From: a virus
Taxonomy: Duplodnaviria; Heunggongvirae; Uroviricota; Caudoviricetes
Strand: one strand, 5' to 3'
DNA length: 4,397 bases
Virus record (IMG/VR): IMGVR_UViG_2734482568_000007
The stretch's first letter is position 1, and the number at the start of each line of letters is the position of its first letter. Positions 1 to 4,397 of this stretch are shown in pieces. The position numbers were made by a program, and so were the translations under genes. Below the pieces are notes generated by a model, which was given only the letters and a program-made list of their open reading frames with translations, was not told the origin of the DNA and did not search any database.

Positions 1-60
1 CTCTCGTCTGGGGAATATCTCCCCGGCAGCCTTCAGGGAAAAATATCATCAGATGGCTGC

Positions 61-414
61 TTAAAAAAAGAACAAATGGTAGTGTCCGCTATTGCCAGTA
101 CACCTCAATTGCTCTGCGGCTTCGCTCAGAGCTGGCGTATGTTCCCGGCCTACTGATTCACACAGGTAATCAACGAAACCGGACACCAGTTTTCGTTCGC
201 GAGGCGTGATCGCCCCACCGACCGGAGTCCAGTAATCGAAACCCAGTTGCAGGAGTTTGAAAAAACGCTTGTGGAATGCGTAGTTACACACACGCTTAAA
301 GTCTGCGTGTATCCACTCACCTATTTTGATTTGATGCAGAAAATCGCAACTCTCCGGCGTCGCCGGGAGAAGTAATCCGGAAGAGGTTTGTTTGACCAGT
401 TGTATATGTGCCAT
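61..414 (-). CDS. Hypothetical phage protein, 117 aa from ATG 414 (MAHIQLVKQ...); family not recognised
   Basis: Six-frame ORF 61..456. The track's start at 456 is a TTG; the first ATG is at 412-414 and is preceded by GGAGAAAG about 5 nt upstream. Stop TAA at 61-63. Same strand and tight spacing with neighbouring genes. Confidence 0.5.
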   Translation of the reverse strand: MAHIQLVKQTSSGLLLPATPESCDFLHQIKIGEWIHADFKRVCNYAFHKRFFKLLQLGFDYWTPVGGAITPRERKLVSGFVDYLCESVGREHTPALSEAAEQLRCTGNSGHYHLFFF

Positions 415-1372: not shown

Positions 1373-2059
1373 TCACTCCTTCTCTTCTTTACCGTAGTGG
1401 AGTTGACCAATTTTGATAAGAGGGCGTCCCTGAGATTTGCGGTGTAGATTGGTATCGCGCAGAGAATACACACAGCCACAATATTCCTGCTGATAGAATT
1501 TTTCGCGCTTGCTGATTTCAATCATACGGGACGAGCCGCCCTGCTTGCGCCAGTTATAATCCCAGTACACCATGCCCGGATAATGCGCGACGGCTCGCCG
1601 CCCACAGTCGTTAACCTGCTGCATATTTTTCCAGCGTGAAATGCCCAGTGAACTGCTGATCACACTGAAACCATTTTCAGCGGCGTACAGCGCTGTCCGC
1701 TCAAAACGCATGTCAAAACACATGGTGCAACGGATCCCTCGTTCGGGCTCCCATTCCATTCCTTTGGCTCGTTCAAACCAGTTGTCTGTGTCGTAATCAG
1801 CATCAATAAACGGCACGCCGTGTTGTTCAGCAAAGCGAATATTCTCATCCTTACGAATTAAATACTCTTTCTGAGGATGAATGTTCGGGTTGTAGAAAAA
1901 GATGGTGTAGTCGATTCCCGAGGCCTGAAGCGCCTCCATCACCTCACCGGAACATGGAGCACAGCAAGAGTGCAGTAGTAGTTTGTTTGCCCCGTTTGGG
2001 AGCTCCAATTTGGGCCGTTTGAAATCAGCAACTGTCATAAATATGTTTATTGGGGTCAT
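1373..2059 (-). CDS. queH: QueH-like protein (DUF208, epoxyqueuosine reductase family), 228 aa
   Basis: Translation carries the [11 protein letters not shown] motif I associate with DUF208/QueH, plus further Cys pairs (RCTMC, CGC). Full-length ORF with ATG at 2057-2059; an alternative ATG at 2036-2038 exists and neither has a strong SD. Stop at 1373-1375. Confidence 0.8.
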
Positions 2060-3057: not shown

Positions 3058-3609
3058 CTACTTAACAACCCTCGAATGGCTAACATTCGGACGCCAGCTC
3101 TCCCAGTTAAAATTCACCCAGCGCCNNNNNNNNNNNNNNNNNNNNNNNNNNNNNNNNNNNNNNNNNNNNNNNNNNNNNNNNNNNNNNNNNNNNNNNNNNN
3201 NNNNNNNNNNNNNNNNNNNNNNNNNNNNNNNNNNNNNNNNNNNNNNGATAGCTGCCGCTAAGTGATTCTTCCCGGTACCAGGTTTTCCGCTGAACGCAAA
3301 ATTTGTACACCCGGTCATCAGTTCATCGGCGATGGATTTCGCCTGGCTTAACGCGTATCGCTGGCCGTCGTTCTGCACCTGGTAATTCGCAAACGAGCAT
3401 TTACGGTGCAACGGCTGGATGCCTGAGCGATTCAGAATTTTTTCCACCCGCAACTGGCGATTCAGGCGGTTGATCTCCTCGCTACGTTTCTGGCCTTCAG
3501 CAAGTTGCCACTCGCGCCACTCCGCTACCGTTCTGAATGGGGCGGTTACATGTGGCGGGGTCAGTCGGCGGATGCGTTCCAGAACGCCGCCTGTCGCAAT
3601 ATTTTTCAT
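3058..3609 (-). CDS. DnaC-like replicative helicase loader (prophage paralogue, YdaV-type), interrupted by a 121-nt N run
   Basis: N-terminal 121 aa align with E. coli DnaC as I recall it (MKN..., NRSGIQPLHRKCSFANYQV, Walker A FSGKPGTGKNHLAAAI). After the N run the same frame gives RWVNFNWESWRPNV, matching the DnaC C-terminus (WVIFNWDSYRSRV). ATG at 3607-3609 lies 6 nt after the upstream TAA. Confidence 0.85.
   Translation of the reverse strand: MKNIATGGVLERIRRLTPPHVTAPFRTVAEWREWQLAEGQKRSEEINRLNRQLRVEKILNRSGIQPLHRKCSFANYQVQNDGQRYALSQAKSIADELMTGCTNFAFSGKPGTGKNHLAAAIXXXXXXXXXXXXXXXXXXXXXXXXXXXXXXXXXXXXXXXXXRWVNFNWESWRPNVSHSRVVK
3126..3246. other. Run of 121 N (assembly gap or masked sequence) inside the DnaC-like gene
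   Basis: Positions 3126-3246 are all n. The reading frame happens to be preserved across the run, but it covers only 41 codons where canonical DnaC has about 105 residues between Walker A and the C-terminal motif. Confidence 0.95.
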
Positions 3610-3615
3610 GGTCCG

Positions 3616-4292
3616 TTACCCCCTGAAGCCTGGCGGGATCGCACTGTCCGGCAACGAGACGGTGTTAACCTGTCGGAGCAACGTCTCAGGCCGAACACCT
3701 TTCGGCGCGAACAGGCCCTGGTATTCATTGGCGATGCTGTGTCGAATCACCTGCTCAGGTGTAAAACCCTGCTGACGGAATTTTTCCAGTTCCCGTATCG
3801 CCCCGTTAGCGCCCTGCTCCGTTCGAATCGGTTTTCGCAATGCCTGTCTGAACCGGACCCACTCATGCCAGAGTGTTTCCGGCAACCAATCGGGCAGCTC
3901 AATAGCCTCCGGCTCGAATTTTTTAGACGCTCGTTTTTGGCGAGGGGGAGATCAGTATTTAGATCTTCCTCTTCCTCTTCCTCTGGTAACGCTTTTTGAT
4001 CCGTTTGTGTAACGCTGGCAGCGTTACCTTTTCGTTTCAGTTCGCGTATTTTTGTTACTCGCTCGTTTGTAACCGCCCGTTTTTTTTAGAGCTTTTTCCG
4101 TTATGACGTTCAAAGTTAGGTAGAGAAAGCCCTCCGTCATTTTCGACCAGCCATCCAACCTGAATTAACGCATCAGCAAAACCAGACATAAAAGTGATGC
4201 GATCTATTGCACTTTTTGTAACGCCGCGAGCGTTACAATCTGCATTACCGTCTATCATTTGTTGATCCGCCCATGCCCAGAAGCGAATAACC
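3616..4292 (-). pseudogene. DnaT-like / YdaU-type phage replication (primosomal) gene, 5'-truncated by the IS and split across three reading frames
   Basis: The C-terminal frame (3616-3951) ends RQVNTVSLPDSAIPPGFRG, matching the E. coli DnaT C-terminus (...NTVSEPDSQIPPGFRG). The upstream frame (4055-4292) stops 8 codons after an A8 run. A third frame is open from 4085 down through the region between them and includes a poly-Glu stretch. Both frame changes are one-base shortfalls in the same direction at homopolymers. The segment 4293-4318 of the track ORF is IS sequence. Confidence 0.6.
3985..4076. repeat. Cluster of direct and inverted GTAACGC-type motifs (iteron-like) inside the linker of the replication gene
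   Basis: ggtaacgc (3985-3992), gtaacgc (4009-4015), gcgttac (4021-4027, forming a perfect 7-bp palindrome with the previous copy around tggca), gttactcgc (4054-4062), gtaaccgc (4069-4076). A (cttcct)x3 tandem hexamer lies at 3965-3982 and A/T runs flank the cluster. Confidence 0.4.
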
Positions 4293-4397
4293 TGAGGTAG
4301 CCTGAGTTTAACGGACACTCCTTCCTGAAATAGAATGGCATCAGAAGGAGCTAATAATGAGCAGAAAAACCCAACGTTACTCTAAAGAGTTCAAAGC
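4293..4397 (+). mobile_element. Left end of an IS3-family insertion sequence (IS600-like), continuing beyond the window
   Basis: The terminal sequence starts TGAGGTAGCCTGAGTTTAACGGACAC, a TG-initiated inverted-repeat end of the IS3 type. It is followed by an SD (AGAAGGAG) and an orfA start at 4357 encoding MSRKTQRYSKEFK, which matches IS600 OrfA from memory. The boundary is approximate to within a few nt. Confidence 0.65.
4357..4397 (+). CDS. IS3-family transposase OrfA, N-terminal 13 codons (partial, runs off the window)
   Basis: ATG 4357-4359 preceded by AGAAGGAG with a 6-nt spacer; translation MSRKTQRYSKEFK. Confidence 0.65.
   Translation, partial: MSRKTQRYSKEFK

Follow-up and report, generated by a model that had tools for sequence, protein, structure and literature searches.

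The window, by which we mean the whole 4,397-nt stretch of DNA analysed here, holds a 4.2-kb prophage remnant bracketed by IS600 in the manner of a composite element. Gene direction is that of the minus strand throughout the window, and the layout is as follows.

1–107, strand not specified: terminus of a second IS600 copy, oriented like the first, an exact match to the other IS600 terminus; it truncates the DUF1367 gene
Low-coordinate end of the window, minus strand: truncated DUF1367 gene, cut by the second IS600 copy (from the gene table of locus L006)
740–453, minus strand: rem
1202–990, minus strand: hokD, with the sok RNA alongside
2059–1373, minus strand: queH
2620–2207, minus strand: hypothetical gene
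3043–2621, minus strand: DUF977 gene
3058–3609, minus strand: dnaC-like loader gene (ydaV), downstream of the initiator remnant
3616–4292, minus strand: remnant of a replication-initiator gene, defined by alignment to the intact genes of E. coli FDAARGOS_944 and of the phage Rac record
4293–4397, strand not specified: last 105 bp of a 1264-bp IS600, from comparison with L006 and from the length and ends of the element

The same gene order is found in the intact Rac-like prophage of E. coli FDAARGOS_944 and in phage Rac record MN652886. The replication module of the latter shows the order cro-like gene, ydaT, initiator, ydaV and DUF977, and shares 93% nucleotide identity with the locus described here. 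The start of ydaV lies 7 nt past the stop of the initiator gene. The window is a piece of a scaffolded draft, and ydaV is interrupted by a run of 121 Ns (3126–3246) that replaces 316 bp present in L006. Length is not preserved by this run; in L006 the 316 bp encode the central part of a dnaC-like YdaV that is intact at 248 aa. Duplicated or N-containing copies of ydaV are present in several related draft loci (L010, L012 and L015), and a ydaV repeat is therefore the probable cause of the break in the assembly.

Two other genes of the remnant appear to have escaped damage. The hokD toxin ORF seems intact inside the decayed prophage, at a length of 70 aa in the ORF list and 51 aa in the RefSeq annotation. 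The only Rfam match in the window was the sok antitoxin RNA beside it (RF01794, full-length, 117 bits, 1140–1315), which is unrelated to the frame breaks described below; hokD and sok together span 990–1315 on the minus strand. Also intact is queH (1373–2059, minus strand), the epoxyqueuosine reductase gene carried by the prophage, and it is conserved in all related prophage loci.

We then analysed the reading frames of the initiator remnant. It comprises codons 36–262 of an intact 262-aa protein, spread over three frames, and its features are given below.

4080–4087, minus strand: first lesion, a run of eight A residues (A8) on the mRNA strand, T8 on the plus strand; net frame change −1
4055–4057, minus strand: premature TAA stop of the N-terminal frame, eighth codon past the A8 run
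3966–3983, minus strand: coding repeat of the Glu run, GAAGAG twice in the window; part of a linker in which the copy number depends on the allele
3943–3950, minus strand: second lesion, the junction of a 10-bp deletion; net frame change −1
3919–3925, minus strand: A_AAA_AAT in the middle frame, ancestral and the same in intact genes, hence no lesion

Three-frame translation and codon layout showed that the N-terminal frame reads ...NGKSSKKNGRLQTSE and runs ...NGK SSK KNG RLQ TSE up to the TAA at 4057–4055. One base back, the frame stays open across KKRAVTNE...PEEEEEED... (open stretch KKRAVTNERVTKIRELKRKGNAASVTQTDQKALPEEEEEED). The C-terminal frame, SPPRQKRASKKFEPEAIELPDWLPETLWHEW..., has its stop at 3616–3618 and opens only past a TGA at 3954–3952, and a second net −1 shift at or below 3951 is therefore needed to reach it. 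Since each indel amounts to a net −1, the gene reads in three successive frames. A preliminary description of the window, made from its letters only, had already proposed a stop eight codons after the A8 run, an open frame one base back through the poly-Glu linker, and a second shift of the same sign, all of which were borne out by the translation.

Alignment to two intact genes revealed the nature of the two breaks. At the first site, the window carries A8 where the intact genes carry A6, that is, two extra bases. At the second site, the intact sequence GATC-TCCCCCTAAA-TCCCCCT-CGCC is represented in the window by GATC-TCCCCCT-CGCC, with a single TCCCCCT left at 3949–3943. The 10 bp lost are one unit of the direct repeat TCCCCCTAAA|TCCCCCT, for which the full intact sequence is TCCCCCTAAATCCCCCT. 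The breaks had been described as two one-base shortfalls at homopolymers; their position and sign hold, and their nature does not, in view of A8 against A6 and of a 10-bp deletion. Among the homopolymers put forward for the second site, the C5 run does lie within the deleted repeat, but the A5 and A6 runs are the same as in intact genes. In a megablast search of complete E. coli genomes, 694 bases of the query were paired with 702 of the subject; the gap of 8 bases, where two one-base shortfalls would give 2, is explained by changes of +2 and −10 that each equal −1 in frame and sum to −8. When AA was removed and TCCCCCTAAA re-inserted, 228 of 228 residues from codon 36 onwards were identical to those of the intact 262-aa E. 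coli prophage protein, so the lesions are not a chance reading of the sequence. The repaired remnant differs from the intact gene at one synonymous position in 684 nt and, together with the complete identity in protein sequence, this indicates that the decay is recent.

The third lesion lies at the upstream edge of the remnant, where IS600 sits after codon 36 and is flanked by a 3-bp duplication of its target (GGT). The 1264-bp element stands in L006 between the opening 108 nt of the gene (MASNWIKLEVITPDKPEIFRLAEILNIDPDAALGKV) and the rest. The element ends in TGAGGT...ACCTCA, and its orfA starts at 4357 on the plus strand. RefSeq uses the label 'IS3-like element IS600 family transposase' for elements with which it shares 99.8% identity, and the NCBIfam IS3 transposase model hits its orfB with E = 1e-99. 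A length of 1264 bp, TG...CA ends, the 3-bp duplication and the presence of both orfA and orfB identify it as IS600 of the IS3 family. The gene had been suspected of being truncated by an IS; involvement of an IS is correct, but this is a simple IS600 insertion with the N-terminal codons on its far side in L006 and not a mere truncation. As a consequence of the insertion, the 87-aa ORF that enters the remnant takes its GTG 'start' (4318) and its nine N-terminal residues (MSVKLRLPQ) wholly or partly from IS sequence. This GTG is preceded by a GGAAGGA motif within the IS end, and judging from that arrangement the 87-aa ORF may be translated to some extent.

Both ends of the window (1–107 and 4293–4397) are exact termini of one insertion-sequence type in the same orientation. 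Beyond the right-hand IS600, L007, L010 and L012–L015 have a different sequence, with a truncated ydaV of a second Rac-like prophage as one example. This suggests IS600-mediated rearrangements between prophages, with the proviso that some of these loci are scaffolded drafts.

To what family does the intact protein belong? The 262-aa protein matched PHROG 2509, 'replication initiation protein', over residues 1–262 with E = 1.2e-89, and this full-length profile match, along with a position directly upstream of the dnaC-like loader gene, places it with the PHROG 2509 initiators. PHROG 6451, 'primosomal protein', matched residues 118–262 (E = 1.7e-39). The label 'DnaT-like' given to the gene earlier can be kept in part: a DnaT-like C-terminal region is plausible from the PHROG 6451 profile, but the match to the DnaT model itself (NCBIfam PRK02854) was confined to the last 19 residues and reached 16.2 bits (E = 0.006) against a cut-off of 201. 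A Pfam search of the intact protein and of the fragments returned no family, PF07120 included (for the intact protein, none at E ≤ 0.01). The gene is called ydaU in phage Rac record MN652886 and in one RefSeq annotation. Membership of DUF1376 (PF07120), the family of the K-12 YdaU type, was considered and rejected in view of the Pfam result. In L010 and L012–L014, a different prophage has a 285-aa DUF1376 protein at the corresponding position; the 262-aa protein is thus analogous to it in position without belonging to DUF1376. Like the initiators of the lambda O type, it has two domains joined by an acidic linker, and PHROG 678, 'replication initiation O-like', matches part of it; we take this as no more than a resemblance.

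The gene also contains repeated palindromes. A 19-bp palindrome, GTAACGC-N5-GCGTTAC, occurs at 4009–4027 and at 4218–4236 of the remnant (two seen, 0.01 expected by chance), with an extra half-site at 3986. Intact loci have three copies, with spacings of roughly 192 and 207 bp; they lie within the gene and immediately before it, the third copy, at 3866–3884 of L001, being 13 nt upstream of the intact start codon. The copies of the gene in E. coli, phage Rac and S. flexneri all share the palindromes. By analogy with lambda O, where the origin lies inside the gene, they are candidate binding sites for the initiator, and they might alternatively form an operator. In S. sonnei, the IS600 insertion parts the first copy from the other two.

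The preliminary description had offered homopolymer under-calling in a draft assembly as one explanation of the frame breaks, in which case the indels would be miscalls and the true gene a single ORF. The window is indeed part of a scaffolded draft in which 121 Ns stand in for 316 bp of L006, the first site is a homopolymer, and a natural in-frame allele with A9 exists. We therefore looked at how the lesions recur in public data. The 87-aa product is diagnostic of the disrupted locus, since it runs across the IS600 junction into the frameshifted tail. An exact look-up found this product in 481 index blocks and on 492 public contigs. A8 and a single TCCCCCT were present in ten of the ten loci fetched (L006–L015), of which four are on contigs of 4.80–4.82 Mb; many of the carriers are short-contig assemblies. 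Loss of 10 bp at a direct repeat is unlike a homopolymer error, and the IS600 insertion is an independent mark of a dead gene. Because both lesions are shared by all ten fetched loci, including the four contigs of about 4.8 Mb, an assembly error is excluded and both indels are real and heritable. Under-calling is thereby refuted, also by the nature of the second site as the deletion of a repeat unit, and we regard any explanation by sequencing or assembly artefact as exceedingly improbable.

The named sources of the 87-aa product include 'putative bacteriophage protein [Shigella sonnei]' and 'FORC11_0721 [Shigella sonnei]', and the assignment to Shigella sonnei is that of the source labels on identical proteins. 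The segment is held by 685 complete E. coli genomes, and among the matches listed none carries both lesions. The best full-length identity among the listed complete E. coli matches was 94.8%, as 12 gap columns predict, and none of the full-coverage matches had only one of the two lesions. E. coli records that appeared in bands of high identity and were absent from the full-coverage rows were taken as partial alignments.

Comparison of the A run among homologues provided further insight into the first lesion. Of the 93 protein representatives with a readable motif, 86 have KK followed by R, which corresponds to A6 in the loci checked at the DNA level, and two have KKK followed by R. One of the latter, P0028, is an intact protein of 261 aa with the source label Shigella dysenteriae, and its contigs (L016–L018) carry A9 on a nucleotide background almost identical to that of the window. 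A9 is thus a rare intact allele, and A8 is one base short of it. Consequently, the idea of a one-base shortfall at a homopolymer fails against the common A6 form, but the in-frame A9 allele makes such a shortfall possible at the first site. A comparison of flanking SNPs found a sole variable site, 4133, which sets the S. sonnei copies apart from both the A6 and the A9 alleles; the A8 of S. sonnei may be a change of +2 from an A6 ancestor or of −1 from an A9 ancestor. A genome scan of a species-representative collection with a pattern of variable A-run length returned two A6 loci only, in S. flexneri SFBU1023 and E. coli ECMA0423, and both carry an unrelated 11-bp deletion.

The A9 loci L016–L018 are short contigs labelled S. 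dysenteriae and two SRA-derived assemblies, and they encode an intact initiator with an extra Lys. The partial protein P0002, with the same KKK, carries an S. sonnei label. Some Shigella isolates may have a second, uninterrupted copy of the prophage module.

We next considered if the split gene could still be expressed as one protein. Codon layout confirmed that the slippery heptamer A_AAA_AAC at 4085–4079 is in register with the incoming frame, as had been proposed, with AAA AAA AAC as the in-frame codons. A −1 frameshift at this heptamer, or slippage that adds one A to A8, followed by a second −1 event (for example at A_AAA_AAT, 3925–3919) would give a protein of nearly full length. Each heptamer lies in register with the frame that leads into it, and A8 plus one A equals A9, the in-frame allele of intact genes. 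Runs of eight or nine A residues permit some slippage by RNA polymerase in E. coli. However, the two-frame layout is not conserved, and intact homologues are single ORFs with A6. The 79 nt downstream of the heptamer fold at −15.3 kcal/mol, no better than shuffled sequences (z = −0.9), and the stems found there are the ancestral GTTAC/GTAAC palindromes. The A6 at 3919–3924 is likewise ancestral and did not evolve for frameshifting. Two independent events of low efficiency would be required, and IS600 has taken away the first 36 codons, the start and the upstream region. The site resembles programmed −1 frameshift or slippage sites, such as those of IS3-family orfAB and dnaX, in its in-register A_AAA_AAC on an A8 run, but unlike them it lacks a conserved split and a stimulatory element and is accompanied by a second, unrelated lesion. 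Programmed −1 frameshifting, which had been raised earlier as a remote option, is thus unsupported by homologues that are single ORFs, by an A8 that is derived and by the fold score, and we consider recoding of this gene very unlikely.

The repeats of the linker vary among related loci. One copy of GAAGAG is found in L003 and L016–L018, two in the window and L001, five in L008 and L009, and six in L011; the five- and six-copy forms thus occur within the S. sonnei pseudogene itself. Glu runs in homologues are of about 2 to 9 residues. The A run occurs in three lengths (A6, A8 and A9) and GAAGAG in four or more copy numbers, in sequences that otherwise hardly differ at the nucleotide level. It could be argued from this that the A run and the GAAGAG and TCCCCCT repeats form a hypermutable linker that, under selection, switches the initiator on and off. 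Several observations make such a contingency locus extremely doubtful. A8 was present in all ten loci fetched through the 87-aa product, so that no switching was seen in this limited sample, and A6 predominates in intact genes. In-frame variation of repeats would presumably be neutral in an acidic linker, and neither the 10-bp deletion nor the IS insertion is readily reversible. A narrower form of the idea, in which the A run is a slippage hotspot that, where the gene is otherwise intact, would provide a reversible switch of prophage replication or a partial rescue by transcriptional slippage, also appears to us most unlikely. In the window any such rescue is moot, given the IS600 insertion and the 10-bp deletion.

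Taken together, these results indicate with high confidence (a probability of about 0.93) that the locus is a recently inactivated pseudogene of the initiator of a Rac-like lambdoid prophage remnant, fixed in a lineage for which the named sources are Shigella sonnei. Intact orthologues exist, disabling lesions are present, and these are reproduced in independent assemblies. Genuine decay, which was among the explanations first offered, therefore gains support from the three lesions (IS600, A8 and the 10-bp deletion), from the intact orthologue and from the repair that restored 228 of 228 residues. The gene was put out of action by three distinct changes: the insertion of the 1264-bp IS600 after codon 36, which splits it; a change at the A run, probably by slippage, giving A8 from A6 (+2) or from A9 (−1); and the loss of one 10-bp unit, as would be typical of replication slippage between direct repeats. 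The three lesions together would mean that no functional product is made.

The same gene has been damaged elsewhere in Shigella. An independent 11-bp deletion (GGGCGCTAACG; the equivalent in the window is 3814–3804) is present in S. flexneri SFBU1023 (L004) and in L005. In both loci it frameshifts the C-terminal domain of the initiator. Going by the sequences of the loci examined, this is parallel decay, with one initiator gene put out of action by different lesions in S. flexneri and in S. sonnei. Expansion of IS600 has been documented, as have no fewer than 199 pseudogenes in each Shigella reference genome (Hawkey et al., 2020, PMC7373316). Set beside the part of that account drawn on here, the present locus is like other IS and indel pseudogenes of Shigella in its combination of IS600 with frameshifting indels, in affecting a dispensable prophage gene and in its clonal fixation, with no essential difference. 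The kind of event is already known and is one of ordinary gene decay.

S. sonnei genomes list two small ORFs here, for example FORC11_0721 and FORC11_0720, as 'hypothetical' or 'putative bacteriophage' proteins; both are pieces of a single initiator gene that is dead. Annotation as a single pseudogene is called for, and the finding has little significance beyond correct annotation. It does carry a caution for readings made from the sequence alone, since what appeared to be under-calling was a +2 homopolymer change and a direct-repeat deletion, and the nature of the breaks was revealed only by comparison with intact homologues. For the biology of Shigella, the locus provides a further example of one prophage gene lost in parallel in S. 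sonnei and S. flexneri.
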